A stretch of 64,000 bases of DNA, from the IMG/VR virus record IMGVR_UViG_3300012964_000002, positions 1-64,000 of that record. One strand, given 5' to 3'. Numbering within the stretch: position 1 is the first letter of the stretch; each line of letters starts with the position of its first letter. The notes under the pieces were generated by a model. It made no database searches. It was not told the origin of the DNA and worked only from the letters and a program-made list of their open reading frames with translations. The DNA comes from a virus. Below, in pieces: positions 11,869 through 55,880 of the stretch. Made by a program: the position numbers and the translations under genes.

Positions 11869-12111
11869 ATGAACCAGCAGGAGATGATGGCGGCGAGGGG
11901 CTACCTTACCATCAACGAGGCGGCCCGCCGCTGCGGGCTCTCCCCCGACGGCACGTACAAGCTCGTCGTGTCGGGCAAGGTCAAGAGCGTGAAGGTCGGC
12001 AAGTTCAGGTACGTGCTCAAGAGCAGCCTCGCGGAGCACTTCGGGCCGGAGGCGGCCGAGATCATGGGGCTCGCCGATCCGCCGCCTCCCCCGCGCCGGA
12101 GGACGCAGTGA
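11869..12111 (+). CDS. excisionase-like HTH DNA-binding protein
   Basis: YLTINEAARRCGLS...YKLVVSGKVKSVKVG...YVLKSSL. Confidence 0.8.
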   Translation: MNQQEMMAARGYLTINEAARRCGLSPDGTYKLVVSGKVKSVKVGKFRYVLKSSLAEHFGPEAAEIMGLADPPPPPRRRTQ

Positions 12112-34334: not shown

Positions 34335-35033
34335 GTGGAGCAGCCGAAGGTTCACTGGGTCCCGATCGAGCAGACGCGGCCCCACCCTCGCAACTACCGC
34401 AAGCACCCGGAGGACCAGCTCGAGCACATCGTCGCGTCGCTCCGTCAGCACGGGTTCTACCGCAACGTCGTGCTCGCCCGCGACGGGACGGTCCTCGCCG
34501 GGCACGGCGTGCGCGAGGCGACGGAGAGGATGAAGGGCACGCACCTTCCCGCCATCGTCCTCGACCTCGACCCGAACGACCCCCGCGCGCTGAAGGTGCT
34601 CGCGGGCGATAACGAGATCGGGAAGCTGGCCGAGACGGACGACCGCGCCCTGACCGAGCTCCTGAAGGAGGTTCTCCGGTCCGACGACGCGTTCGGGAAG
34701 CTCTCCGGGACCGGGTTCAACGAGGAGCAGCTCGCGGCGCTCGTCTTCACGACGCGGCCGGCCAGCGAGGTTCAGAGCATGGACGAGGCGGCCGCCTGGG
34801 TCGGGATGCCTGAGTACGAGGAGGGCGGCAGCACGATCAAGCTGGTCATCTCCTTCAAGTCGGACGAGGACCGCGCGCGCTTCCTCGCGGAGACGGGCAT
34901 CCGCATCGACAAGAGCGCCATCAAGGGCAGCACGTGGTCGACGCGCTGGCCGTGGACCGACCGCGAGGACTCCGCGTCCGTGCGCTTCGAGACGAAGGAG
35001 GAGCCCCCGCCCGCGCCTCCCGAGGCGGCGTGA
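34335..35033 (+). CDS. ParB/Srx-domain protein linked to glycosyltransferases
   Basis: PHPRNYRKH...GF...VLAGHG...DNEI; C-terminal WVGMPEY. Confidence 0.85.
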   Translation: MEQPKVHWVPIEQTRPHPRNYRKHPEDQLEHIVASLRQHGFYRNVVLARDGTVLAGHGVREATERMKGTHLPAIVLDLDPNDPRALKVLAGDNEIGKLAETDDRALTELLKEVLRSDDAFGKLSGTGFNEEQLAALVFTTRPASEVQSMDEAAAWVGMPEYEEGGSTIKLVISFKSDEDRARFLAETGIRIDKSAIKGSTWSTRWPWTDREDSASVRFETKEEPPPAPPEAA

Positions 35034-35803
35034 CCGGGGCTCTCCCGCGCTACCCCGTGTACGTGCTCTCCAAGGGCAGGAGCGACCGCTGCCTGACGGC
35101 GAGGTTCCTGCTCCGCGACGGGGTGCCGTTCATCATCGCCGTGGAGCCGCACGAGGCCGACCTGTACGCCGCGGAGTTCGGGCGCGAGCGCCTGCTGATT
35201 CTCCCCTTCCGCGACGCCGGGACCGCCACGCCCGCGAGGAACGCCGTCAAGGAGCGCTCCGTCGCGGCTGGCGACGCGAGGCACTGGCAGCTCGACGACA
35301 ACATCCGAGGAATCCGAGGCTACGTCGACGGCAAGCGCGTCCGGGTGAGGGGCGGGCCGGCGCTCCGCGAGGTCGAGGAGCTGGTGGACGGCTACGAGAA
35401 CGTGGGCATCGCGGGCCTTCAGCACACCGTCTTCCAGGACCGCTCGCGGCCGTTCCTCGTGAACCGTCAGGTCTACTCGTGCGTGCTGGTGGACAACCGT
35501 CTGCCGTTCCGCTGGCGCGGGGTGGCGCACCACGACACCGACTACTCTCTTCAGGTGCTCGTGGCCGGCCACTGCACGATCCTCGTCTGCGCCTTCGGCA
35601 TCGAGAAGGCACAGACCATGTCGATGAAGGGCGGGATGACCGACGCCTACCTGGGCGACGGGAAGCTGCGGAAGGCCCACGAGATCCAGCGGCGGTGGCC
35701 CGGGCGCGGCATCAAGATCGTGCGGCGCAACGGCGTCCCAAGCGCCAGCATGGGGCGCGTCTGGTCGAAGTTCACCACCCCGCTGCGCCCGAGGTCCCCG
35801 TGA
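35030..35803 (+). CDS. GREB1-like/TET-associated glycosyltransferase 1 (GT-A fold)
   Basis: YPVYVLSKGR, VEP, HWQLDDNI, VYSCVL, WRG, DTDYSLQVL, TMSMKGG. Confidence 0.8.
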   Translation: MTGALPRYPVYVLSKGRSDRCLTARFLLRDGVPFIIAVEPHEADLYAAEFGRERLLILPFRDAGTATPARNAVKERSVAAGDARHWQLDDNIRGIRGYVDGKRVRVRGGPALREVEELVDGYENVGIAGLQHTVFQDRSRPFLVNRQVYSCVLVDNRLPFRWRGVAHHDTDYSLQVLVAGHCTILVCAFGIEKAQTMSMKGGMTDAYLGDGKLRKAHEIQRRWPGRGIKIVRRNGVPSASMGRVWSKFTTPLRPRSP

Positions 35804-36687
35804 CGCTCCCGCGCTACCCGGTGTACGTGATCTCGAAGGGGCGGCATGACTGCTGCCTGACCGCCCGCGCGTTCGTGAAGGATGGGGTGCCCTTCCGCCT
35901 GGTGGTGGAGCCGCAGGAGCGGGAGCTGTACGCGCGGGAGTTCGGGGGCGGCCCGCTGCTGGTGACGCCCTTCTCGAACCTCGGCCTGGGCTCGATCCCC
36001 GTCCGCAACTTTGTCTGGGAGCACGCGAAGGCTTCCGGCGCGGAGCGGCACTGGATCTTCGACGACAACATCTCCGGCATCTGGCGCCGCTGGAAGGCGC
36101 GGAAGATCCGGTGCGAGGCCGGCGTCGCGCTCGCCGCCTCCGAAGACTTCGTCGACCGCTACGAGAACGTCGCGATCGCGGGCCTCAACTACTACATGTT
36201 CTCGGTGAACAAGACGAAGCAGCCGCCCTTCTACCTGAACGTCCACGTCTACTCGGCGCTGCTGATCCTGAACGACCTGCCGTTCCGCTGGCGCGGCCGC
36301 TACAACGAGGACACCGACCTCTGCCTCCAGGTGCTCTCCGCCGGCTGGTGCACGGTCCTCTTCAACGCCTTCCTCGCGTGGAAGATGACGACCATGACGA
36401 TGAAGGGCGGGAACGCGGCCGAGCTCTACAAGGGCGACGGGCGCCTCAAGATGGCGCGGTCGCTCGAGCGGGCGTGGCCGGGCGTCGTCACGACGCGGCG
36501 CCGCTTCCGCCGCCCGCAGCACGTCGTGAAGGGAGCGTGGCGCGGGTTCGACACGCCGCTCAAGCTCAGGCCGGGCGTGGACCTTTCCGCGCTTCCGAAG
36601 GTGGACGAGCGGGGGATGGAGATCGTCCGCGTGAAGGAGATCCGGAGCGCGGAGCTCAGGCAGATGGTCGAGGAGCGGGAGAGGTGA
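35800..36687 (+). CDS. GREB1-like/TET-associated glycosyltransferase 2
   Basis: YPVYVISKGR, HWIFDDNI, WRGRYNEDTDLCLQVL, TMTMKGGN. Confidence 0.85.
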   Translation: MTLPRYPVYVISKGRHDCCLTARAFVKDGVPFRLVVEPQERELYAREFGGGPLLVTPFSNLGLGSIPVRNFVWEHAKASGAERHWIFDDNISGIWRRWKARKIRCEAGVALAASEDFVDRYENVAIAGLNYYMFSVNKTKQPPFYLNVHVYSALLILNDLPFRWRGRYNEDTDLCLQVLSAGWCTVLFNAFLAWKMTTMTMKGGNAAELYKGDGRLKMARSLERAWPGVVTTRRRFRRPQHVVKGAWRGFDTPLKLRPGVDLSALPKVDERGMEIVRVKEIRSAELRQMVEERER

Positions 36688-36920
36688 GCTGGATTTCGCT
36701 GAGCGACGCGGCCGACCGCCTGGGGCTGCTCCCCGACGAGCTTTCCAAGATGATGCTCGTCACGCACCGGAACGGCACGTCCTTGGTGATGCATCCTCCG
36801 CGCAAGTGCTTCAGCGGCAAGATCCGGGTGACGCACGGGCCGCGCGTGTGGGAACCAGACTTGGAGCCGTGGGCCGCGGAAAGGGCGGCGGGGCTGATCC
36901 CGTGGGGAACAATCTCGTGA
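36684..36920 (+). CDS. wHTH paralog family member
   Basis: WISLSDAADRLGL...VWEPDLEPWAAERAAGL. Confidence 0.65.
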   Translation: MSWISLSDAADRLGLLPDELSKMMLVTHRNGTSLVMHPPRKCFSGKIRVTHGPRVWEPDLEPWAAERAAGLIPWGTIS

Positions 36921-37420
36921 GCGGGCTCCGTCCTCTTCGTCCTGTGCTGGTCGGGCAGGCGCCCGGGCCGGGCGGCGCCCCGCTCGGCCCGCTGCGGGGC
37001 GGGCGCGTCGGGCGCCGCCTCGCGGACGCGGCGGGGCTTCCGGAGGAGCGGCTCGCGGAGGTCTTCGAGCTGTGGAACCTCCTCGGCGCCTGGCCGGGCC
37101 GCGCCGGCGAGAAGGGGGACCGCTTCCCGCTCCCGGCCGCCCGCGCGGCCGCGGCGCGCCTGCTGCCTCTCCTTGACGGGCACCACGTCGTCCTGCTGGG
37201 GTGGAACGTCGAGCGTGCGTTCGGGCTGGGAATCGAGGCGCCGCTCCGCTGGCTGCAGCACGAGTGGGCGGAGGGCGAGATGCTGGTCGCCGTTCTGCCC
37301 CACCCGTCGGGCGTGAACCTCTGGTGGAACCGGGCGGAGAACGTCGCGGCGGCGCGCGTGTTCATGCGCGGGCTCGTCGAGCACGCCGCCGACCTGCGCG
37401 AGGGCGCGCCCCGTGCTTGA
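36917..37420 (+). CDS. uracil-DNA glycosylase-superfamily protein
   Basis: LVGQAPG, WNL, VVLLG, LPHPSG motifs. Confidence 0.75.
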   Translation: MSGLRPLRPVLVGQAPGPGGAPLGPLRGGRVGRRLADAAGLPEERLAEVFELWNLLGAWPGRAGEKGDRFPLPAARAAAARLLPLLDGHHVVLLGWNVERAFGLGIEAPLRWLQHEWAEGEMLVAVLPHPSGVNLWWNRAENVAAARVFMRGLVEHAADLREGAPRA

Positions 37421-38201
37421 CGTCCTGCTCGACGCGGGGAAGGGGCAGGGAGCCGTCGTTGTCCACGGCGACGGGATGGAGCTGCTCCGCGCGCGCCCCG
37501 ACCGATCCGCCGGCCTCGTCCTGACCGACCCTCCCTACGACCCGCGGACGCACGAGGGGGCGCGCACGAACCGGGAGGGGGCGGGCGACAAGTCGCCCAT
37601 CCTGTTCGCGCCGTTCTCCGAGGAGCAGGTGCGCGAGCTGGCGCGCGAGGCGTGCCGCGTCACCCGCGCCTGGGTGGTGATGACGCTGGAGTACAGGATG
37701 GCCGTCCACTTGGAGGACGACCCGCCGCCGGGCGTGCGGTTCGTGCGCCTGGGGATCTGGGACAAGCTCCGCACCGGCGCGCCCCAGAAGTCGGGTGACC
37801 GCCCCGGGATGGGGTACGAGGCGGTCGCGATCCTCCACCGCGACGACGTCGGTCGGATGCGCTGGAACGGGCACGGGCGTGACGCGGTCTTCCGCCACGC
37901 CGTCGTGCGCGGCGGGCACCCCACGGAGAAGCCGGTCGGCCTGGGCGTCGAGCTCGTGCGGCTGTTCTCCGACCCGGGCGACGAGGTGATCGATCCCTTC
38001 TGCGGCTCCGGCGCGTTCTTGGAGGCCGCGAAGGTGGAGGGACGTCGCGCGGTCGGCGTCGAGCTCGACCTGGCGTGGGCCAGGAGGGCGGCGCGCCGGC
38101 TCTCCCAGGCGGTCATCGCCGCGCCCGCGGCGCCCCGCGCTGAGCAGCCCGATCTCCTCGTGGTGCCTCGGACGAGGCGCCCCCGTGCCGCCCTTCCTTG
38201 A
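37413..38201 (+). CDS. DNA N6-adenine/N4-cytosine methyltransferase (beta class)
   Basis: TDPPY, HPTEKP, DPFCGSG, GVELD. Confidence 0.92.
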   Translation: MLDVLLDAGKGQGAVVVHGDGMELLRARPDRSAGLVLTDPPYDPRTHEGARTNREGAGDKSPILFAPFSEEQVRELAREACRVTRAWVVMTLEYRMAVHLEDDPPPGVRFVRLGIWDKLRTGAPQKSGDRPGMGYEAVAILHRDDVGRMRWNGHGRDAVFRHAVVRGGHPTEKPVGLGVELVRLFSDPGDEVIDPFCGSGAFLEAAKVEGRRAVGVELDLAWARRAARRLSQAVIAAPAAPRAEQPDLLVVPRTRRPRAALP

Positions 38202-38225
38202 CTTGTCAGAGGTCTCGGCTATGTT
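38198..38225 (+). promoter_or_regulatory. putative sigma70-type promoter
   Basis: TTGACT-N16-TATGTT upstream of the HNH gene and paralog array. Confidence 0.55.
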
Positions 38226-38240
38226 GGTGATGTGCTCGCC

Positions 38241-38432
38241 ATGGGTGCCACCGTCTCCAGCTCCGCGCTTCCGCGCCTCCGCCTCGTGCCGAACGATCTC
38301 GAGGCGCGCCCGCACAACCCGCTGGCGCCGCTCGCGCACGTCGCGTTCTGCTACCGCTGCGCCCTCTTCTGCGTCCCGCTCGGGACGAAGGAGCGCTGCC
38401 CGGAGTGCCAGATGGTGTACCCGCGGGAATAG
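38241..38432 (+). CDS. small zinc-ribbon protein
   Basis: CYRC...CPEC. Confidence 0.5.
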   Translation: MGATVSSSALPRLRLVPNDLEARPHNPLAPLAHVAFCYRCALFCVPLGTKERCPECQMVYPRE

Positions 38433-38459
38433 CGGCACGTTCCGGGCAAGTCTCAGTCC

Positions 38460-38942
38460 ATGAGCCTGCGTCGGAAGCACGGGCACTCTTACGGTTCTGA
38501 CGGCAAGCCGTCCCGCACGTACAAGAGCTGGCAGGCCATGATCGAGCGGTGCACGCGGCCGGCGCACCACGCGTGGTCTAACTACGGGGGGCGCGGAATC
38601 GAGGTCTGCGAGCGATGGCGCTCCTTCGAGGCGTTCCTCGCCGACATGGGCGAACGTCCCGTCGGGAAGACGCTGGACCGCTACCCCAACCGTGACGGAA
38701 ACTACGAGCCCGGCAACTGCCGGTGGGCGACGTGGGCTGAGCAGCGTAGCAACTCCAGGCAGAACCACATGCTGACGTTCCGGGGTGAGGAGTGCACGCT
38801 TACGGAGTGGTCTCGGCGCGTCGACATTGGCAAGTCCACAATACGGCAGCGCTTGCTGAAGGGGTGGAGCGTGGAGGCCGCGCTGACGACGGCACCGTTG
38901 CCGCACGAGCACTGCGGTAGCATCAGAAAGCGGACGTCGTGA
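38460..38942 (+). CDS. free-standing HNH homing-type endonuclease
   Basis: SWQAMIERC...YGGRGIEVCERW...TLDR...GNYEPGNCRWAT...Q..N; lower GC. Confidence 0.85.
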   Translation: MSLRRKHGHSYGSDGKPSRTYKSWQAMIERCTRPAHHAWSNYGGRGIEVCERWRSFEAFLADMGERPVGKTLDRYPNRDGNYEPGNCRWATWAEQRSNSRQNHMLTFRGEECTLTEWSRRVDIGKSTIRQRLLKGWSVEAALTTAPLPHEHCGSIRKRTS

Positions 38943-39268
38943 GGCAGCGCGGGGCCGTCGTCGGGCGTCTCCCGCGCGGGTGGGTATCGTTGGACGCAGC
39001 GGCCGCGCTCCTCTGCATGGAGCCGTGGCAGTTCTATAAGTGCCTGAGCGACCGCGAGATTTCATTTTACCCGCGGGGGGTTTCGCACTACCGCTGGGGC
39101 GCCGCCAACCTGCTCAACCGCCTGCCCGCGCTCGAGCTCGTAGGCTGGCGCGGCAGCAGGCACCTGTACGACTGGAACACGCGCGAGCACCGCGCGACGC
39201 ACGTGCGGAGGCGCGCCGTCGTGGAGTGGATCGCGCTGCGCGCAGCGCGGCTGCTCTCAGCCGGCTGA
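38939..39268 (+). CDS. wHTH paralog family member
   Basis: WVSLDAAAALL...THVRRRAVVEWIALRAARLL. Confidence 0.65.
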   Translation: MRQRGAVVGRLPRGWVSLDAAAALLCMEPWQFYKCLSDREISFYPRGVSHYRWGAANLLNRLPALELVGWRGSRHLYDWNTREHRATHVRRRAVVEWIALRAARLLSAG

Positions 39269-39270
39269 GA

Positions 39271-39522
39271 ATGCGCGGCGCGGAGGGCAAGACCTCGGGC
39301 GTGACCGACGACGGATGGATCCCGCTCGAGGAGGCCGCGGAGCGCGCCGGGTTTGCCGACAAGAACGACCTCCTGCGTTCGCTCCCGTCCGTCCTCTTCG
39401 ACGACGCCAGCATGGACCAGGGGCCGACGGAGATCCTCGCAAGCTACCTGGAAAACTGGATGGCGCGCCGCGTCGTCCTGATGCTAGAAGTCGACGCTCC
39501 GGCGGTGAGGTCCCGTGGCTGA
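39271..39522 (+). CDS. wHTH paralog family member
   Basis: WIPLEEAAERAG...LENWMARRVVLML. Confidence 0.6.
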   Translation: MRGAEGKTSGVTDDGWIPLEEAAERAGFADKNDLLRSLPSVLFDDASMDQGPTEILASYLENWMARRVVLMLEVDAPAVRSRG

Positions 39523-39931
39523 CGAGTGGATCACGCTGGAGGAGGCGGCCGACGTCCTCCGGACCACGGTCGGGGACCTGGCAACGGAGCTGTCTCGCTC
39601 TGGATCCCTGCTGTCGAGTGGGCAGCTTCCGCCGTCTGTCGAGCTCACGCCGGCGTGGCCGAACGTGCGTGTGTGGCACATCTGGACGCCCAAAGGGATC
39701 GGTGCGCAGGGCAACCGGTTCGACGAGGTCAGCCTGCGGTCGCGCTCGCTCGGCGCGTTCAAGGCCACGCACGTCCACTCCGGGGACCTCGAGGTGTGGG
39801 CCGCCGACCGCGCCGCGCGCCTCGTGAGCACGTGCAAGGTGTGCTTCGGAAAGGGGTTCGTTCCGTCGAAGCCGCCGATGCGAGCGGTGGTTCCGTGCCC
39901 GATGTGCGGCGGATCGGCCAGGCGACCGTGA
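39515..39931 (+). CDS. wHTH paralog family member with CxxC tail
   Basis: WITLEEAADVL...THVHSGDLEVWAADRAARLV; CKVC...CPMC. Confidence 0.7.
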   Translation: MADEWITLEEAADVLRTTVGDLATELSRSGSLLSSGQLPPSVELTPAWPNVRVWHIWTPKGIGAQGNRFDEVSLRSRSLGAFKATHVHSGDLEVWAADRAARLVSTCKVCFGKGFVPSKPPMRAVVPCPMCGGSARRP

Positions 39932-40281
39932 GCGAGTGGCTCACCGTGAAGGCGGCCGCGCGGGAGGCCGGGTACATCGACTGGGTAGACCTCGTGTTCG
40001 ACCTGGAGAGCTCGCTCGCGCCGCCGGGCATGATCTTCGACGTCTCGCTGGTGAAGACGGAGCTGCGCCGCGGGGTGGAGCAGTTCACCGGCACGTACCG
40101 GTGGAGCCCTTATGGGCCCAAGACGTTCATGTTCTCGCACCTGCACGCGGAGGACTTCAGCGCGTGGGTGGCGCGTCGCGCGGAGCGCATGCTGTCGAGC
40201 CGGTGCCGCCGATGCGGGGGAACTGGCCAGGTTGTCAACCAGGGGATCCGGGAGAGGTGCGAGTGCCGCGGCCTTCGATGA
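39928..40281 (+). CDS. wHTH paralog family member with CxxC tail
   Basis: WLTVKAAAREAG...SHLHAEDFSAWVARRAERML; CRRCGGTG. Confidence 0.7.
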   Translation: MSEWLTVKAAAREAGYIDWVDLVFDLESSLAPPGMIFDVSLVKTELRRGVEQFTGTYRWSPYGPKTFMFSHLHAEDFSAWVARRAERMLSSRCRRCGGTGQVVNQGIRERCECRGLR

Positions 40282-40700
40282 TCTTCTCGTTCGACGAGGG
40301 AATGTGGCTGCGCTGCGTGTCGCCGAAGACGCCGTGGCACCGCCACGACGAGGGGATGTGGCTGTCGGAAGCGCGCGCGGCCGAGCTGCTCGACCTCGGC
40401 GACTGCGGGTGCCGAGGTGAGTGGAGGTGCGGGCCGTGGCCGAGGCACGCGCGGATGGCGGAGACGAGTCCCTTCAACGGGCGAGAGCTGGCCTTCCCGA
40501 AGGGGGTTGGCGGACCTCCGGAGCTGCGGTTCGCCTGGCAGCGCCGCGACGCTCTCGGACGCTGGAAGCCGCCCGGAGACGACTCCTACTTTTGGCGTCC
40601 GGACGTCGAGCGGTTCGTCGCGTGGTACGTGGAGCACCTGGCGGAGCAGTCGGCGCGGTTGCTGTCGAACGGCGGATCGGAAGAGGAGCTGGCCGGGTGA
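40278..40700 (+). CDS. wHTH paralog family member
   Basis: WLSEARAAELL...FWRPDVERFVA...SARLL; duplicated DEGMWL. Confidence 0.6.
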   Translation: MIFSFDEGMWLRCVSPKTPWHRHDEGMWLSEARAAELLDLGDCGCRGEWRCGPWPRHARMAETSPFNGRELAFPKGVGGPPELRFAWQRRDALGRWKPPGDDSYFWRPDVERFVAWYVEHLAEQSARLLSNGGSEEELAG

Positions 40701-40963
40701 GCGCGAGCCACGAGCACGCCGGGACGTTGATGCTTCGCGTCGTTCTCGCCACCGCCAGAGGTTCCACGGAGCGTTGGCCGTCCGACACCTTCGTGGAGGA
40801 GATGACGGTGTGTGCGGAGTGCGGCGCGCTGTTCGTGCCGCCGGACCAGATCGAGGAGGTCGCCGCGCGCGCGTCGGAGCGCATCCTGCGCGACCGTCAG
40901 CAGCAGGTTCCCCGGACGGAGCACGAATCGACCGCGTCCGTCGGCCCTTGGAAGCGGCGATGA
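40697..40963 (+). CDS. hypothetical protein within array
   Basis: CAEC; VAARASERIL tail similar to the family; lacks the N-terminal W motif. Confidence 0.5.
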   Translation: MSASHEHAGTLMLRVVLATARGSTERWPSDTFVEEMTVCAECGALFVPPDQIEEVAARASERILRDRQQQVPRTEHESTASVGPWKRR

Positions 40964-41280
40964 CCGGCTGGCTGACCGTCAGGAAGGCGGCGGAGCGCGC
41001 GGGGCTTTCCCCAGAGGCGATGGCCGGCCTGCTGCTGGGGTACGCACCACTGCTTGAGCTCAGGGGGCCGGAGGGGAAGCCGCTGTTCTCCGACGTCGAC
41101 CGCTTCCTCGTGCGCGAGCGGGACGTGGATCGCGTGCTCGCCGACGGCGCCGCGCGAATGATGTCGTCGTGCAGGGTGTGCAGCGACACGGGGTCCGTCA
41201 CGGTGGAGGACATGAACGGGCCGCCCTACTCGGTGCTGTGCCCGAGCTGCCGTCCTGACAGGGGGTCGGCGTGGCGGTGA
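40960..41280 (+). CDS. wHTH paralog family member with CxxC tail
   Basis: WLTVRKAAERAGLS...VRERDVDRVLADGAARMM; CRVC...CPSC. Confidence 0.7.
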   Translation: MTGWLTVRKAAERAGLSPEAMAGLLLGYAPLLELRGPEGKPLFSDVDRFLVRERDVDRVLADGAARMMSSCRVCSDTGSVTVEDMNGPPYSVLCPSCRPDRGSAWR

Positions 41281-41771
41281 ACGTCGATCTCGAGCTCTGG
41301 GTGCCACTCGACGAGGCGAGCGAGCTTCTCGCCTTGGACCTGGCGCGGGAGCTGGGGGACTCGCTGAACGGTTGGGTGTGGTTCGCGCGGCACTTCGTTC
41401 TCGGGACGACGCCGCCGGACATGCGGAGGCCGGACGGGATGACGCTTCTGCTGGCCAACGTGCCTGGCGTGTCCGCCTGGCCGGTTCGCGTCAGAAAGGG
41501 GAACGTGCGACCCACGCCTTCGTGGGGCGGCGACGTGCTGGTCTGCATGGTCAGCCACGTGTGGAGAGGCGACGTCGACGTGTTCCTCGCGGAGCGCGCC
41601 GCCGCGCTGCTCGGGACGGGGGGCGTCGCGGTGAGGAGGGGGCGAACGCACTACTTCTGCCCGGTGTGCCAGACGAACGTGATGCCGGTCCTGATTGGAA
41701 TAACCAGGGTGAACCTGCCGCCCGCGTGCTTTCGGTGCGGCGCGCGGTTCATCGGGGCGGAGCGCGGGTGA
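41271..41771 (+). CDS. wHTH paralog family member with zinc ribbon
   Basis: WVPLDEASELL...SHVWRGDVDVFLAERAAALL; CPVC...CFRC. Confidence 0.7.
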   Translation: MAVNVDLELWVPLDEASELLALDLARELGDSLNGWVWFARHFVLGTTPPDMRRPDGMTLLLANVPGVSAWPVRVRKGNVRPTPSWGGDVLVCMVSHVWRGDVDVFLAERAAALLGTGGVAVRRGRTHYFCPVCQTNVMPVLIGITRVNLPPACFRCGARFIGAERG

Positions 41772-42115
41772 GCTGGGTGCCGATCGAGGAGGCGGCCGCC
41801 GCGCGCGGCCTGTCCGGCGGAGACCTCGCCGACGTGCTTCAGCATCGGGTGGTGGTCAGGAACAGAAGGAACGCCAGGCTTCGCGGCGAGACGTGGGCGC
41901 GCGGGATCGTCGCGGTGAAGGAGGGCAGGCTTGGCGTGCCGTGGTGGGCCGTCAAGACCGGCGACGACGTGGCCTTCGTGTCGCACGTCTGGGGCCCGGA
42001 CGTGGACGGCGCCCTCGCCGCCGCGGCGGCCGAGCACCTCGAGGTGGACGCGCATCGCGCGCGCCTGGCCAAGGAGCTGAAGATGCTCCGCGAGAGCAAG
42101 ACGAGGCGGCGGTGA
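41768..42115 (+). CDS. wHTH paralog family member
   Basis: WVPIEEAAAARGL...SHVWGPDVDGALAAAAAEHL. Confidence 0.7.
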   Translation: MSWVPIEEAAAARGLSGGDLADVLQHRVVVRNRRNARLRGETWARGIVAVKEGRLGVPWWAVKTGDDVAFVSHVWGPDVDGALAAAAAEHLEVDAHRARLAKELKMLRESKTRRR

Positions 42116-42492
42116 GCTGGATCTCCTGGGACGAGGCGGCCGCGCGCGCCGGCGTGCCCGTCCTCGAGTTCGCGCGCTCCGTCGCGCGCACTTCCTGGAC
42201 GGTCTCGTGGTCGATCTTTTCTCCGCAGGACCGGGCGTTCAAGCAGGCGACGTCGTACAGCTGCTGGACGCAGGACACGGTGCGCGCCGTCGTCGTGCGG
42301 GTGGTGTCGTTCGACGGCGACACCTCGCTCGAGGCCGTCGCCAGAAGGGAGCGCGACTCCGGGGTGTGGCGCGGGGCGGACGGGTGGGCCGGGTCCCTGC
42401 TCGACTCGACGCACCTGTGGGACGAGGACGTGAACAGGCTGGCGGCCATGCTCGCCGCCGAGCTCGTCGAGGACGGGGCGAGGGCGCGATGA
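42112..42492 (+). CDS. wHTH paralog family member
   Basis: WISWDEAAARAGV...THLWDEDVNRLAAMLAAELV. Confidence 0.7.
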   Translation: MSWISWDEAAARAGVPVLEFARSVARTSWTVSWSIFSPQDRAFKQATSYSCWTQDTVRAVVVRVVSFDGDTSLEAVARRERDSGVWRGADGWAGSLLDSTHLWDEDVNRLAAMLAAELVEDGARAR

Positions 42493-42948
42493 GCTGGGTG
42501 ACCTTGGAAGAGGCGGCGGAGCGCCTCGGGCTGTCGAAGGAGGACTTCGCGCTGGAGCTGGCCGAGTCCGGCGCCGCCGAGCGCTGGTGGGCCAAGAGCG
42601 ATCCGAAGAATCCGAATCTGTTCCGCGGGGCGCTGCGCGTGACGACCCGGCAGGGGCCGACCGTTTCCCTGAGGAAGGGGATGCACAGGGGCACGCGCCT
42701 CGGGGCGATCGCCGCCTCGCACGTCTGGGAGCCGGACCTCGAGCCCTGGGCCGCCTGGTGGGCCGCCGAGCAGCTCCGGGACCGCTCGCTCGACTACGTG
42801 GCCGACTTCGCCGACGGCGACCGGCTCGACAGGGTGGCGCGCGACTGGGGGGTTCCTGCGCCACCCCGGGGAGGACGACGTCGCCTTCCGCGGCCGCCTC
42901 GCCGCCGCCTCGGCCCTCTTCGCCGGAAAGGGGCCCGACGTCCCCTAG
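42489..42948 (+). CDS. wHTH paralog family member with apparent frameshift at G6 (42847-42852)
   Basis: WVTLEEAAERLGL...SHVWEPDLEPWAA; removing one G gives DWGFLRHPGEDDVAFRGRL...stop at 42948. Confidence 0.6.
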
Positions 42949-43117
42949 CCCGGGCCGGCCGCCCCCGGAGGTTCCCGGCACCTCCCCGGCGCCCCGGGGA
43001 GCCTCGCGCCGCCCCGCCCCCCTCCTCCCGCCCCTCCCCGGGGAGGAAAGGCGCCCGCGCGGCCCGCCGGAACCTCCCCCTTGACCGCCGCCGCCCCTCG
43101 GAGGGAGAGTTTCCCGC

Positions 43118-43906
43118 ATGGGCTCAGGCCGCGTCCCCTACACCCGCGAGCTGTACGACATCCTCGTCGCCGCCTTCCGGGAGGCCCCCGGCAACTACGC
43201 GCACGCCCTCCGCAGGTCCGGCATGTCCGACAGGAAGGCCATGCGCCGCGTCTGGGAGAAGGGCTGGAAGAATCTCCCGTGGGCGCGCCCGATTCGGCTC
43301 GTGCTGGAGGAGGAGCAGAGGGACGCCCTGCTCGAGGTGGCGCGCCTGAAGGAGCGGGAGCGCGAGGAGCAGGAGAGGCGGCGCGAGGAGGTCAGGGCGG
43401 AGGCCATCAAGTCGCGCGTGGAGGAGGGGCAGGCGGCCGACCTCGCGCGGCGGAACAGCATCGCGGCCATGGCGTCGATGCGCCCGCTGCTCGTCGGCAT
43501 CCACAAGCTCGCGCCTCGGCTCGAGGCGGTGCTCTCGGACCCGCAGCTAAAGGTGGACCCGGAGAAGGCGGCGAAGCTCATCCTCGACATCTCGCGGGCG
43601 TCGAAGTTCGCGGGGGAGACGGCCCACCGCGCCATCGTGATGAGCCGCCTCATCCTCGGGAAGCCTACCGACATCCTCGGCATCGGCGGCGCGGCCGACG
43701 ACGTGGACGACATGTCCATGGAGCAGTGCCTGGAGGAGCTCAAGGTCATCGAGCAGGAGGCGCGCGAGGCGCTCACGACCGCGGCCGCCCCGCGCGAGCT
43801 CACCGTCATCCAGGGCGGGAAGCAGGCGGCGGACGGCACCCCGCCGCCCGACGACGACGGCAAGGGCCGCGGCGGTTCCGGGTCTCCGCCTCCGCCCGCA
43901 CCGTGA
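43118..43906 (+). CDS. putative terminase small subunit
   Basis: N-terminal HTH-like region, coiled coil, DDMSMEQCLEEL tail; upstream of TerL (position-based inference). Confidence 0.5.
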   Translation: MGSGRVPYTRELYDILVAAFREAPGNYAHALRRSGMSDRKAMRRVWEKGWKNLPWARPIRLVLEEEQRDALLEVARLKEREREEQERRREEVRAEAIKSRVEEGQAADLARRNSIAAMASMRPLLVGIHKLAPRLEAVLSDPQLKVDPEKAAKLILDISRASKFAGETAHRAIVMSRLILGKPTDILGIGGAADDVDDMSMEQCLEELKVIEQEAREALTTAAAPRELTVIQGGKQAADGTPPPDDDGKGRGGSGSPPPPAP

Positions 43907-43917
43907 AGGGAGAGGTC

Positions 43918-44184
43918 ATGACGCGGCTCAAGGCGTGGTTCAAGCGGCTTCGCGCGGCGCTCGCTCGATGGCAGGAGCGCCGCGAGCGCGCTCGCGCGGT
44001 GGAGCGGTGGGACGGGGAGCGGTGCTGGATGTGCCGCGCCAGGAAGGACGCGCACGTCGGGCGCATGGGTGAGACCTGCCCCGACGGCAGCGGGGGGTTC
44101 GTCGGGCAGCACATCAGGCGGCGGCCGGGCGCGGAGATCGAGCGGGCACTCGCTGCCCATCCCGTGCGGGGCGCGTGCCTGTGA
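43918..44184 (+). CDS. hypothetical protein
   Basis: GGAGAGG RBS; CWMC...H...C. Confidence 0.5.
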   Translation: MTRLKAWFKRLRAALARWQERRERARAVERWDGERCWMCRARKDAHVGRMGETCPDGSGGFVGQHIRRRPGAEIERALAAHPVRGACL

Positions 44185-44543
44185 GCCCCTGCGTGAGGGC
44201 GATCACCGTCAGGTTCGAGGTCGTGCAACAGAACGGTCTCGAGATCGAGTTCGACGAGACCTTCGCGACGGACTCGGTGGAGAGGGCGCTCGAGCTAGCG
44301 GAAGAGTACCGCCACGTTCCGCCGCTTCCGCTGGCCATGGCCGCCCGGGTCGTGGCTGACGACCTGTACGAGAACGGGAGGACGTACCCCAGGAAGAACT
44401 GGTGCGTCACGCACCAGCGACCGATGCCAGCTCACGACGTGACGTCGGCGTGCCGCACCCAGAAGCTGACCGAGGCGATGTTCGCCTCCGCCTCGGCGTC
44501 CATGCTGGAGGAGGACGCGCGTCGCCGCGCGCGCCGCTCGTGA
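44181..44543 (+). CDS. hypothetical protein
   Basis: GTGA overlaps on both sides. Confidence 0.55.
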   Translation: MSPCVRAITVRFEVVQQNGLEIEFDETFATDSVERALELAEEYRHVPPLPLAMAARVVADDLYENGRTYPRKNWCVTHQRPMPAHDVTSACRTQKLTEAMFASASASMLEEDARRRARRS

Positions 44544-46039
44544 ACCCCTCTGGCTTCGCCGCCACGGCCGTTCGCCGGAAGCTGCGCCACGCGCGGCAGC
44601 TGCGCGCCCGCGTCGCGCGGGACGACGTCAACGCCTTCATGCAGTTCGTGATGCGGGACGAGAAGACGAACGTCCCGATCCGCCAGGCACCCGTTCACAA
44701 GGCGTGGCAGTGGGAGGTGTCGCACCACAACCGGGTGCTGATCTGGTCCCACCCCGAGAGCGGGAAGACGCAGCAGCTGTCGATCGGCCGCGTGCTCTGG
44801 GAGCTGGGGAGGAACACCGCGCTGCGCGTCGCCGTCATCTCCAGGACGGACAACCTCGCCACGAAGATCGTGACGACCGTCGGGAACCTCGTCCTCAAGA
44901 GCGAGGAGCTCAGGGCCGTCTTCCCCCACCTCCGCAAGAGCACGACCGCGCGCGACTCGTGGACCACGCACGCCATCACCGTCGAGCGCAACAACCCCGG
45001 CATGAAGGAGCCCAGCGTCCAGGCGTTCGGCGCGAGCTCGCGGTCCCTCATCGGCAACCGCCTCGACCTCCTCGTCATCGACGACATCCTCGACGACCAG
45101 AACACCAACTCCGCAAAGCAGATGGAGGACATGTGGGTCTGGTACAACTCCCTGGTCGAGGGGCGTCTCGACACGAACGGGCGCGTCATCGTCGTGGGGA
45201 ACGCCTGGCACCCGCAGGACTTCCTCCACCGCCTCGCGCGCCAGCCGGGGTGGAAGGCGCTCCGCTACCCGGTGGTGGACGACGAGACGGGAGAGCCGCG
45301 CTGGCCGGAGCGCTGGCCCACGAAGCGCATCCTCGAGACGAAGACCAAGCTCGACTCCGCGCGCGCCGGCGAGTTCGCCCGCACGATGCTCTGCCTCGCG
45401 CGCGACGACGCGCAGAGCCGCTTCCACCAAAAGAGCATCGACGCCTGCAAGGCGCTCGGCGCCGGCATGCGTCTCTGGGGTGGCCTGCGAGAGGTTCCGG
45501 CGGGTCACCGCGTCTACACCGGGGTCGACCTGGCCGTGAAGCGCGACGCCAGCGCGGACTTCACCTGCCTGTTCACCATCATCGTGCACCCGGACGGCTC
45601 GCGACAGGTGCTCAACATCCAGACCGGGCGCTGGCGCAAGAGCGAGATCGTCAACCGCATCATCCACGTCCACGCCCGCTTCAACGGCATCGTCATGGTC
45701 GAGGACAACGCCGCCCAAGACTACATCTTGCAGGACGTCGTCGACCGCTCCTCCGTGCCGGTCAAGCCGTTCACGACGGGGCGCAACAAGATGAACATCG
45801 AGTACGGCGTCGAGTCCCTCTCCGCCGAGATGGACAACGGAAAGTGGATAATCCCGTCCGAGGGGGGCAAGTCTCATCCCGAGGTGGAAGCGTGGATCCT
45901 CGAGATGCTCTACTACGACCCGCGGAAGCACACGGGGGACCGCCTGATGGCCTCGTGGATCGCGCGGGAGGCGGCGCGGACCGGGGGCGGAGAGGGCGTG
46001 CGCGCGTGGGCCGGGTCTCTGGACACGATGGCTCGCTGA
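44540..46039 (+). CDS. terL: terminase large subunit
   Basis: PESGKT Walker A, GNRLDLLVIDD Walker B, GNAWH, nuclease GVDLA...ADFT, VEDNAAQ, GDRLMA. Confidence 0.9.
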   Translation: MNPSGFAATAVRRKLRHARQLRARVARDDVNAFMQFVMRDEKTNVPIRQAPVHKAWQWEVSHHNRVLIWSHPESGKTQQLSIGRVLWELGRNTALRVAVISRTDNLATKIVTTVGNLVLKSEELRAVFPHLRKSTTARDSWTTHAITVERNNPGMKEPSVQAFGASSRSLIGNRLDLLVIDDILDDQNTNSAKQMEDMWVWYNSLVEGRLDTNGRVIVVGNAWHPQDFLHRLARQPGWKALRYPVVDDETGEPRWPERWPTKRILETKTKLDSARAGEFARTMLCLARDDAQSRFHQKSIDACKALGAGMRLWGGLREVPAGHRVYTGVDLAVKRDASADFTCLFTIIVHPDGSRQVLNIQTGRWRKSEIVNRIIHVHARFNGIVMVEDNAAQDYILQDVVDRSSVPVKPFTTGRNKMNIEYGVESLSAEMDNGKWIIPSEGGKSHPEVEAWILEMLYYDPRKHTGDRLMASWIAREAARTGGGEGVRAWAGSLDTMAR

Positions 46040-51043: not shown

Positions 51044-51606
51044 GCGCGCTTGGCGAGCTCGCTTGGCAGTTCCGCGTCGCGTTCTCTCGGCGGTGGAACT
51101 GGGACGAGCTTCCGGAGGGCCTGCCGCCCGGCTGGCCGGACGGGGACCCGGCGCGTCGAGAGCGGCACGAGGCGCTGTCGGCCGCCGTCATGCTGGCGGG
51201 CTTCAGCCCGGGGCCCGTGCTCGAGGCGATGCGGATGATCGAGCGAGGGCGGTTCGTGCTCGTGGGGACCGCCGCGCTCCGCCTCCGCGGGCACGACGTC
51301 GCCGCGAGCGACCTCGACTTCCTCTGCGAGCACGCGCCGGGAGGGCTCGAGGACGGGACGGGCAGCGGCGGCTCCACGGTGCGGGAGGTCGTGCTTCCGC
51401 AGCTTCGCGGATTCGTCTCGCACTCGCGCGTCAAGGTCGACTTCATCTACGCGGACAGGCCGCGGCGTCCGTTCCTGACGCGGTTCCCGGACGTCATCCT
51501 TGGCGTGCCAGTGGCGAGCGAGGAGGACGTGATCGGCCTCAAGGCGTGGGCGAACAGGGACAAGGATCGTTGGTTCCTCGCCAGGTGGAGGGCCGGGTGT
51601 GCCTGA
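51040..51606 (+). CDS. polymerase-beta-superfamily nucleotidyltransferase
   Basis: VLVGTAAL...SDLDFL...KVDFI...LK...RDKD. Confidence 0.7.
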   Translation: MSALGELAWQFRVAFSRRWNWDELPEGLPPGWPDGDPARRERHEALSAAVMLAGFSPGPVLEAMRMIERGRFVLVGTAALRLRGHDVAASDLDFLCEHAPGGLEDGTGSGGSTVREVVLPQLRGFVSHSRVKVDFIYADRPRRPFLTRFPDVILGVPVASEEDVIGLKAWANRDKDRWFLARWRAGCA

Positions 51607-55402: not shown

Positions 55403-55659
55403 CGCGCACCGCGTTTCCCAACAGGGACGCGATCCCCACGGTCATCCATCGGCCGCCCTACGGCCAGGGCTGGGGCAGGGAGGCGGAGGTCTACCTCGCG
55501 CACCCGACCGTCACGCCGGACGACGTCGCCCGCCTGCTCCACACCGGCAAGCTCCTCGTCTGGCGGGAGGAGCCCGCCGGCGTGATCTGGGTTCGCGCCT
55601 CCGTGTCCTGGGAAGAGGTCGAGGCAGAGCTCGCGCGCTCTCCGGGGCGCGCGCCGTGA
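55399..55659 (+). CDS. hypothetical protein
   Basis: Coupled to portal. Confidence 0.5.
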   Translation: MTRTAFPNRDAIPTVIHRPPYGQGWGREAEVYLAHPTVTPDDVARLLHTGKLLVWREEPAGVIWVRASVSWEEVEAELARSPGRAP

Positions 55660-55880
55660 CGGATCCGACCGCCGGGTGGCTCACGGCGGCGGAGGCCGCG
55701 GCCGCGTTCCCCGGGCTGACCCCGGAGCGGCTCGCCGCCTTCGCCGCGCTCGGGGCGCTCCGGCAGAAGCTGCTGCACCTCGAGCCCGGGCGCCCGACCG
55801 TGCCGCTCTACGACCGGGACGAGCTCGAGGTGCTGGCGGCGGCGGACGCCGCCTCGCTCCTCGCGGGCCCGCGCGCCTGA
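55656..55880 (+). CDS. MerR/Xis-like wHTH, dispersed family member
   Basis: WLTAAEAAAAFPGLT...LYDRDELEVLAAADAASLL. Confidence 0.65.
   Translation: MTDPTAGWLTAAEAAAAFPGLTPERLAAFAALGALRQKLLHLEPGRPTVPLYDRDELEVLAAADAASLLAGPRA

Follow-up and report, generated by a model that had tools for sequence, protein, structure and literature searches.

A tandem array of small paralogous phage proteins with conserved ends and paralogue-specific middles

The window analysed here, a stretch of 64,000 nucleotides, comprises bases 1-64000 of the 89,426-bp IMG/VR virus record IMGVR_UViG_3300012964_000002, which has direct terminal repeats and a completeness rating of 100%. Eleven consecutive open reading frames (ORFs) run head to tail on its plus strand from 38939 to ~42948, and a further ORF stands apart at 36684-36920. 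From these twelve, the array set, and their homologues elsewhere, we describe a family of small phage proteins in which two conserved ends flank a middle peculiar to each paralogue. The 89-kb phage holds ten certain members, nine of them within the eleven-ORF array and the tenth at 36684, and one probable member at 51599; across all family members the proteins are 74-190 residues long.

The array and its members

Membership was assessed with two kinds of hidden Markov model (HMM), each scored against all 985 six-frame ORFs of the phage: leave-one-out HMMs over the 12 array-set proteins, and an external-only HMM of 18 non-window homologues that includes no window sequence. Expectation values (E) from these models are given with the features.

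36684..36920, plus strand: M00, 78 residues, outside the array, flanked by the second TAGT gene and a UDG-like gene; external-only E 2.1e-9, leave-one-out E 2.5e-8; has VWEPDLEPWAA in common with M11
38939..39268, plus strand: M01, 109 residues; external-only E 1.7e-9, leave-one-out E 2.5e-6
39271..39522, plus strand: M02, 83 residues, short core; external-only E 1.1e-8; orthologue P0039, 62% identity
39515..39931, plus strand: M03, 138 residues, CxxCxGxG...CPxC tail; external-only E 1.3e-26; orthologue P0049, 64% identity
39928..40281, plus strand: M04, 117 residues, Cys tail; external-only E 1.1e-15; orthologue P0014, 47% identity
40278..40700, plus strand: M05, array ORF of 140 residues, motifs seen by eye only and membership without statistical support; leave-one-out E 0.051, external-only E 0.3-1.6; GC content at third codon positions (GC3) 0.88
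40697..40963, plus strand: M06, array ORF of 88 residues, C-terminal-like motif only, membership unsupported; leave-one-out E 6.7 (rank 32), external-only E 0.5-1.8
40960..41280, plus strand: M07, 106 residues, CxxC...CxxC tail; external-only E 3.3e-7, leave-one-out E 1.1e-4
41271..41771, plus strand: M08, 166 residues, zinc-ribbon tail; external-only E 2.5e-19; orthologue P0028, 44% identity
41768..42115, plus strand: M09, 115 residues; external-only E 2.7e-13; orthologue P0011, 55% identity
42112..42492, plus strand: M10, 126 residues; external-only E 6.7e-11; orthologue P0018, 42% identity
42489..42948, plus strand: M11, 3' end uncertain (the coding signal changes frame at ~42820); external-only E 1.1e-20; orthologue P0012, 42% identity
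51599..51949, plus strand: distant probable member outside the array, 116 residues, partial Cys tail; external-only E 1.4e-4; in all 12 leave-one-out runs it ranked first of the ORFs not in the array set (E 2.5e-4 to 0.029)

When the array-set proteins were omitted one at a time, 10 of the 12 scored better than all ORFs that had not been used for training (E 1.5e-15 to 3.8e-4). The external-only HMM recovered ten window genes (36684, 38939, 39271, 39515, 39928, 40960, 41271, 41768, 42112 and 42489) at E 1.3e-26 to 3.3e-7, followed by 51599 at E 1.4e-4, with the best unrelated ORF at E 0.46. A comparison of the alignment with GC-rich ORFs had been set as a check beforehand, and in both searches the family signal beats the 985 six-frame ORFs. 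Among the outliers that the original prediction had placed in the family (20376 with a "perhaps"), 36684 is a member and 51599 probably one; 55656 (E 1.1) and 20376 (E 6.4) find no support from the external-only HMM. The 74-residue ORF at 55656-55880 has a helix-turn-helix (HTH)-like start, an Ala-rich end and a weak match to DUF6397 (E 0.029).

The GC content of the phage is ~72%, and DNA of this composition has long open frames in all six phases, as a reading of the ORFs as chance open frames rather than genes would have it. We regard that reading as extremely improbable. GC3, on which the gene call is based, is 0.86-0.96 in the called frame for all 12 array-set ORFs; the HMM without window sequences recovers exactly these frames; and orthologues are conserved on other contigs. 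The peptide VWEPDLEPWAA, singled out earlier as common to 36684 and 42489 with synonymous differences, is found in both as described, with 7 of 33 nucleotides different and every change synonymous because the peptides are identical. Chance open frames are ruled out for the ten supported members and the probable eleventh, and could apply to 40697 only. At the level of sequence, these comparisons show a real, lineage-specific multigene family of small paralogous phage proteins.

The array had been put at about ten consecutive coupled ORFs. The run, of eleven, is borne out, as are the overlaps: at 10 of the 11 junctions from the HNH gene just upstream to the last member, neighbouring genes overlap by 4-10 nt, the exception being 39268/39271, and these stop/start overlaps therefore suggest that the array genes may be translationally coupled. 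Membership of 40278 and 40697 was not upheld, and the end at 42948 hinges on a change of frame. The stop codon is TGA in all 11 ORFs where it could be read, the end of M11 (42489) being uncertain. The ORF of M11 is open from 42489 to 43349 and would overlap the next gene (43118) by ~230 nt; at ~42820 the GC3 signal passes to the +1 frame, a little ahead of a G6 run near 42845, and a stop at 42948 closes that frame. Between 42820 and 43118 the GC content is very high, as is GC3 in each of the three frames; this part could hold a frameshift, reflect an assembly error or be a non-coding spacer ahead of the terminase genes. No indel at the frame change was seen in an 89,333-bp contig from a public wetland run, which may come from the same sample. 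At the N-terminus of M05 (40278-40400) the peptide DEGMWL occurs twice, 19 residues apart, suggesting a small internal duplication of the family N-terminal motif.

In each member a conserved N-terminal module (~30 residues) and a conserved C-terminal block (~25 residues) enclose a middle of ~8-70 residues that is specific to the paralogue. In the alignment, the N-terminal block reads W-[IVL]-x-x-x-EAA..LG and the C-terminal block SHVW..D..W.A.RAA..LL, and the middles do not align, in agreement with the conserved terminal motifs around unrelated middles described in the original prediction. Helix 2 of the N-terminal module has the consensus [DE]-L-[AC]-x-E-L in most members, acidic where the HTH_17 family is polar or basic. 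The isoelectric point (pI) of the members spans 4.4 to 11.2. Trp makes up 4.2% of family residues and 1.8% of residues in the remaining 104 called proteins (odds ratio 2.4, P 9e-8); for Cys the figures are 1.9% and 1.0%, and Arg stands at 10.7% in the family. The four CxxC tails claimed earlier are all present, at the C-termini of 39515, 39928, 40960 and 41271, with a partial one in 51599. A CxxCxGxG-type zinc-ribbon tail occurs in about a third of members; the form CxxCxGxG...CxxC is seen in 39515, 39928 and 40960 and in the homologues P0010, P0014, P0015 and P0017. For residues 115-163 of M08, the structural neighbours in the ESM Atlas are zinc ribbons, in a poor model (predicted local distance difference test, pLDDT, 0.40); the Atlas gave no usable match or model for M03.

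Orthologues, distribution and related phages

A profile search of 1.84 billion representative proteins returned 48 matches at E <=1e-3. Eleven belong to the phage itself or to a near-identical copy of 89,444 bp, 17 share the family architecture and are true outside members, and 20 are longer proteins matched in their N-terminal part only, of which all 10 tested are HTH_17 repeat proteins. Seventeen outside homologues among so many representatives make for a very narrow family. Of these, seven (P0011, P0012, P0014, P0018, P0028, P0039 and P0049) were placed on an 89,064-bp contig, that of a sister phage whose terminase is 78% identical to the window's; P0017, P0036 and P0047 on a 120,613-bp contig, where the terminase is 58% identical; and P0015 and P0022 on a 19.5-kb contig. 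Within each of these sets the outside members appear, from the equal lengths of their contigs, to share one contig.

Seven window members have one orthologue each, 42-64% identical and scoring 55-163 bits versus 22-43 bits for the second-best paralogue. One-to-one orthology of this kind indicates that the paralogues arose before these phages split, each having been kept since. Across the seven pairs, identity is 63% in the N block (127/203), 64% in the C block (107/168), 40% in the core (121/305) and 37% in the tail (60/163). The large terminase (TerL) is 78% identical and the members 42-64%, so the family evolves faster than the terminase and is nevertheless retained. The cores change faster than the ends and faster than the terminase, yet they are not hypervariable, as the original prediction had called them, if that is taken to mean ongoing diversification: at 40% identity between orthologues, and with seven one-to-one orthologues in the sister phage, the middles are better described as paralogue-specific. 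Conservation of the cores between orthologues, together with a lack of variant reads, led us to drop a diversity-generating mechanism. The 89,333-bp contig, possibly from the source sample itself, differs from the window at a single position over 36600-43200, T>C at 42253, and no population variation in the cores was seen in that comparison. The substitution makes a Ser/Pro change in M10 (42112-42492), and protein P0005 has the identical change.

The description of the family as new was upheld by the databases searched. No Pfam family cut-off was reached by any of the 12 window proteins or 29 family members; no significant match was found in PHROGs (13 proteins, best E 0.0071), NCBIfam (29 proteins, best E 0.041) or PADLOC (29 proteins, best E 0.025); and among PDB sequences the profiles found nothing at E <=10, or only zinc ribbons of the ribosomal protein L33 type at E ~1. 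Within the search terms used, we found no description of such a family in the literature. M03 falls below the Pfam cut-offs for Anti-TRAP (20.4 versus 32 bits, E 5e-4) and DnaJ_CXXCXGXG (15.6 versus 32.7 bits, E 0.02). The CxxCxGxG motif of the DnaJ central zinc domain and anti-TRAP can be read in the family tails, but the family tail is a single zinc unit and is found in part of the family only.

Related-locus searches with M11 and P0012 (viral contigs), P0017 (genome contigs) and P0010 (metagenome contigs) found nothing, and tblastn with P0017 and P0012 gave no match in GenBank phages. Among 81 viral-contig loci, 80 of them with terminases 40-54% identical, no family match reached E <0.05; in 80 terminase-related metagenome loci the best (E 0.03) was a 24-residue N-terminal match that we read as noise; and none of five whole related genomes, four of them at least 90% complete, has the family. 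The phage terminase finds only distant relatives (22-25%) among GenBank phages. All holders of the stretch are contigs from wetland metagenome runs, and no RNA datasets are listed among them. Terminase relatives in genome contigs fall in metagenome-assembled genomes of unrelated phyla and are uninformative about the host.

Five related loci (L016, L047, L071, L088 and L107; TerL 46-53% identical) carry, on both sides of TerL, many small ORFs whose C-termini share a tag, [ED]-A-A-x-R-L-(x)-G, with 0-6 residues between it and the stop. The tag was matched 39 times (35 on the plus strand) in 20,482 unique six-frame ORFs versus 5 times in reversed sequences; in its strict form it was found at the end of none of the 985 ORFs of the window's phage. 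These tagged ORFs belong to the same phage clade and the same neighbourhood around TerS and TerL as the array, and are likewise variable small proteins with a common terminal peptide. The tag also reads like helix 1 of the array family (EAAxRLG); it is C-terminal, however, where the family's motif is N-terminal. Kinship between the two was rejected on present evidence, as HMMs in either direction did no better than reversed-sequence decoys.

Genomic surroundings and likeness to HTH_17

Upstream of the array lie, in order, a ParB-like gene, two TAGT paralogues, 36684, a UDG-like gene and an N6/N4 methyltransferase gene. The two TAGT glycosyltransferase genes stand in tandem (35030-36687; PF20691, E 7e-32 and 8e-46) and share 50% identity. 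Homologues at 55-73% identity to this pair are common in IMG/VR, with 545 confirmed matches. The UDG-like gene matches Pfam UDG below the cut-off (E 0.002) and belongs to phrog_12275, of unknown function. Downstream of the array comes a gene for a 262-residue protein that is also conserved ahead of TerL in relatives, then the large terminase gene (phrog_38). The promoter at 38198, the HNH gene and the adjoining modification cluster named in the original prediction can all be recognised, the first as a candidate site and the last as the twin-TAGT/methyltransferase cluster. Three features precede the array directly.

38198..38225, plus strand: sigma-70-like promoter candidate ahead of the operon, TTGACT-16-TATGTT; a consensus match only, the sole one in 36000-44600 (8.6 kb), with 0.1 expected in shuffles
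38232..38432, plus strand: Cys-rich ORF, 66 residues, first gene past the promoter-like site; GC3 0.94; weak zinc-finger Pfam match below the cut-off (E 0.002), no PHROG
38460..38942, plus strand: HNH endonuclease gene (phrog_3377, E 8.8e-51) whose stop overlaps the M01 start; Burkholderia and Ralstonia phages have HNH genes at 75-76% DNA identity

The family is not generally tied to TAGT: a scan of 80 other TAGT-bearing viral loci (0.92 Mb) turned up no member within 10 kb of that gene (best E 0.021). The five whole related genomes lack TAGT as well.

The conserved ends had been described as Xis/MerR-like, and this holds for one of them in part. The N-terminal 23-33 residues appear to follow the pattern of the HTH_17 family (PF12728; small winged helices of the Xis, TorI and AlpA type), with an aromatic or aliphatic strand, EAA..LG, a turn and then helix 2, which closes with Gly; the proteins as a whole are small, phage-encoded and furnished with an aromatic-rich C-terminal helix. 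Unlike HTH_17, they have an acidic helix 2, after which comes an insert of 8-70 residues that differs between paralogues; a zinc ribbon is present in some members, and the SHVW..D..W.A.RAA..LL block does not align significantly with the end of HTH_17. The Pfam HTH_17 cut-off of 27 bits is reached by none of the 12 window members and none of the 29 family members; matches at E <0.1 are confined to two of the 29 (best 0.0052) and to profile positions 1-16.

Profile-profile comparison by hhalign gave a 94% probability (E 1e-7) over the first 27 positions between the family and 77 HTH_17-type domains, a circular comparison in that these domains were collected from HTH_17 repeat proteins picked up by the family profile itself. 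The more homogeneous M03 subfamily, against the same family-selected domains, reached 93% with ~30 confident columns, extending through helix 2 and the next Gly. Against the phage's own, unselected HTH_17 protein, the probability was 21% (P 0.001, 23 columns). This protein (11869-12108, 38 bits) is the phage's one canonical HTH_17 protein and is clearly distinct from the family; its gene ranked among the top three ORFs from outside the array set in 11 of the 12 leave-one-out runs (second in 9), at E 0.016-0.28. The N-terminal module thus resembles, as far as these alignments go, the HTH_17 strand, helix 1, turn and helix 2, and membership in HTH_17 is not established.

The proposed mapping of the C-terminal block onto the closing strand and helix of such a fold found no statistical support. 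Against the HTH_17 end it scored 9.5 in hhalign (P 0.067), a value matched by 2 of 100 column shuffles, with a comparison alignment that is weak at the C-terminus and gives the test low power; its best local match in HTH_17 is to helix 1, not to the end of the domain. Nor was the MerR part of the description borne out: MerR (PF00376/PF13411) was matched by none of the 12 array-set proteins at E <=1 and by none of the 29 members at E <=0.1.

What the proteins might do

The reading we prefer, with low confidence, sees in the family a repertoire of binding proteins, each specific for its target and built on a degenerate Xis-like scaffold, the targets more likely being protein than DNA. The two conserved ends would pack into one small degenerate Xis-like scaffold, which might also offer a common docking surface, and the middle, with or without a zinc ribbon, would be the specificity element that gives each paralogue a target of its own. 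The phage would then produce, in one burst, several binders that differ in their targets, and those targets might be host takeover or counter-defence proteins. We rank protein targets slightly above DNA because helix 2 is acidic and conserved, the pI range is wide, Trp is enriched, the zinc motif is of the DnaJ/anti-TRAP type and the family evolves faster than the terminase. Several points weigh against this reading. The only Atlas model, that of M08, is the poor one, and the packing of the ends into a scaffold is something we infer. The C-terminal block has no significant counterpart at the C-terminus of HTH_17, the strongest HTH comparison is the one that used family-selected domains, and the unbiased comparison gave the far lower probability. 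No PADLOC or anti-defence-related model is matched by any member. The zinc ribbon, the 10.7% Arg and the DNA-acting neighbours fit DNA binding equally well.

The main alternative, possible though somewhat unlikely in our view, is indeed that the proteins bind DNA, as winged-helix regulators or architectural factors of the Xis/HTH_17 kind whose enlarged, paralogue-specific wings would recognise different sites on phage or host DNA, possibly the phage's glycosylated DNA. The alignment of the N-terminal residues with the HTH_17 strand-helix-turn-helix speaks for it, as does the retrieval of HTH_17 repeat proteins by the family profile (10 of 10 tested among the 20 non-family matches). The neighbouring genes also encode DNA enzymes (the twin TAGT, the N6/N4 methylase, HNH and the terminase), with one member inside the modification cluster; pI is at least 8 in 6 of the 12 array-set proteins; and zinc ribbons are common in nucleic-acid binders. 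Yet the presumed recognition helix is acidic and conserved across paralogues, unlike a specificity element, pI is below 7 in the other 6 of 12, and the HTH_17 cut-off is reached by 0 of 29 members. The lack of any member near TAGT in the 80 other loci also removes a general link to glycosylated DNA. From composition and alignment, the acidic would-be recognition helix and the pI range of 4.4-11.2 argue against a uniform canonical DNA-binding role. The preferred reading has a precedent in TorI, described as an excisionase that acts also on the response regulator TorR (PMC3509656).

Three further readings were weighed. The HTH resemblance may be convergent or vestigial and the proteins may serve otherwise, for instance in a chaperone-like or accessory role in packaging, together with the HNH protein and terminase encoded next to them. 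We consider this fairly unlikely. Only 23-33 residues are HTH_17-like, with an unbiased P-value of 0.001, the array sits between HNH and terminase, HNH-terminase pairs cooperate in packaging, and the tails carry a DnaJ-type zinc motif; eleven diverged paralogues are nevertheless hard to square with a single accessory role, and the absence of the family from 160 terminase-related loci and five whole related genomes means that this terminase type does not need it. An adaptor repertoire, which we think unlikely, would have the ends dock a common partner (procapsid, protease or host RNA polymerase) while the middles capture different host targets, the relatives using their [ED]AAxRL(x)G tag in the same way; it would be comparable to T-even internal proteins or the adaptor families of eukaryotic viruses, built on a degenerate Xis-like fold. 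Quite unlikely, finally, is that the array encodes packaged internal or ejection proteins like the T-even internal proteins (IPs), in which a terminal block would act as capsid-targeting or docking signal and the diverse bodies, injected with the DNA, would block host nucleases (e.g. type IV enzymes acting on glycosylated DNA). T-even IPs are reported to have only a targeting sequence in common, and IPI*, described there as having beta sheets between N- and C-terminal helices, counters a type IV nuclease specific for glucosyl-hydroxymethylcytosine DNA (PMC3012670). The array lies directly upstream of packaging and head genes, its diverse bodies with common terminal peptides follow the logic of the T4 IPs, the phage encodes two TAGT glycosyltransferases, and relatives have small ORFs around TerL with a common C-terminal tag (39 versus 5 reversed). 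T-even IPs (IPI, IPII, IPIII and the variable IP loci) are likewise groups of small and highly diverse proteins in which only a terminal block recurs, a likeness of logic alone: T4 has one short cleaved N-terminal leader, whereas the array family has both ends conserved in longer blocks (~30 and ~25 residues), and the relatives' tag is not detectably related to it.

If the preferred reading, a repertoire of target-specific binders, is true, a single tiny scaffold has been expanded, within a small clade of uncultured phages, to at least ten specificities that are maintained, which would make the clade a compact natural system for studying the diversification of phage binding proteins. The family would also be a new one at the level of the protein, with an HTH_17-like start and an unrelated, strongly conserved end. 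A link to counter-defence of glycosylated DNA is speculative, and the practical value is modest, the family being very rare.

Two further features of the related phages may be mentioned. The [ED]AAxRL(x)G tag presumably recalls the ...RLRGG tails of ubiquitin-like proteins. In L088 (5325-8756) and L016 (5455-8461), a run of small plus-strand genes lies directly upstream of a conserved TerS-like gene for a protein of 262-335 residues. These small genes include Cys-rich and CxxCxGxG-type proteins, of families other than the array family, and throughout the clade this position seems to be a hotspot where small accessory genes gather.

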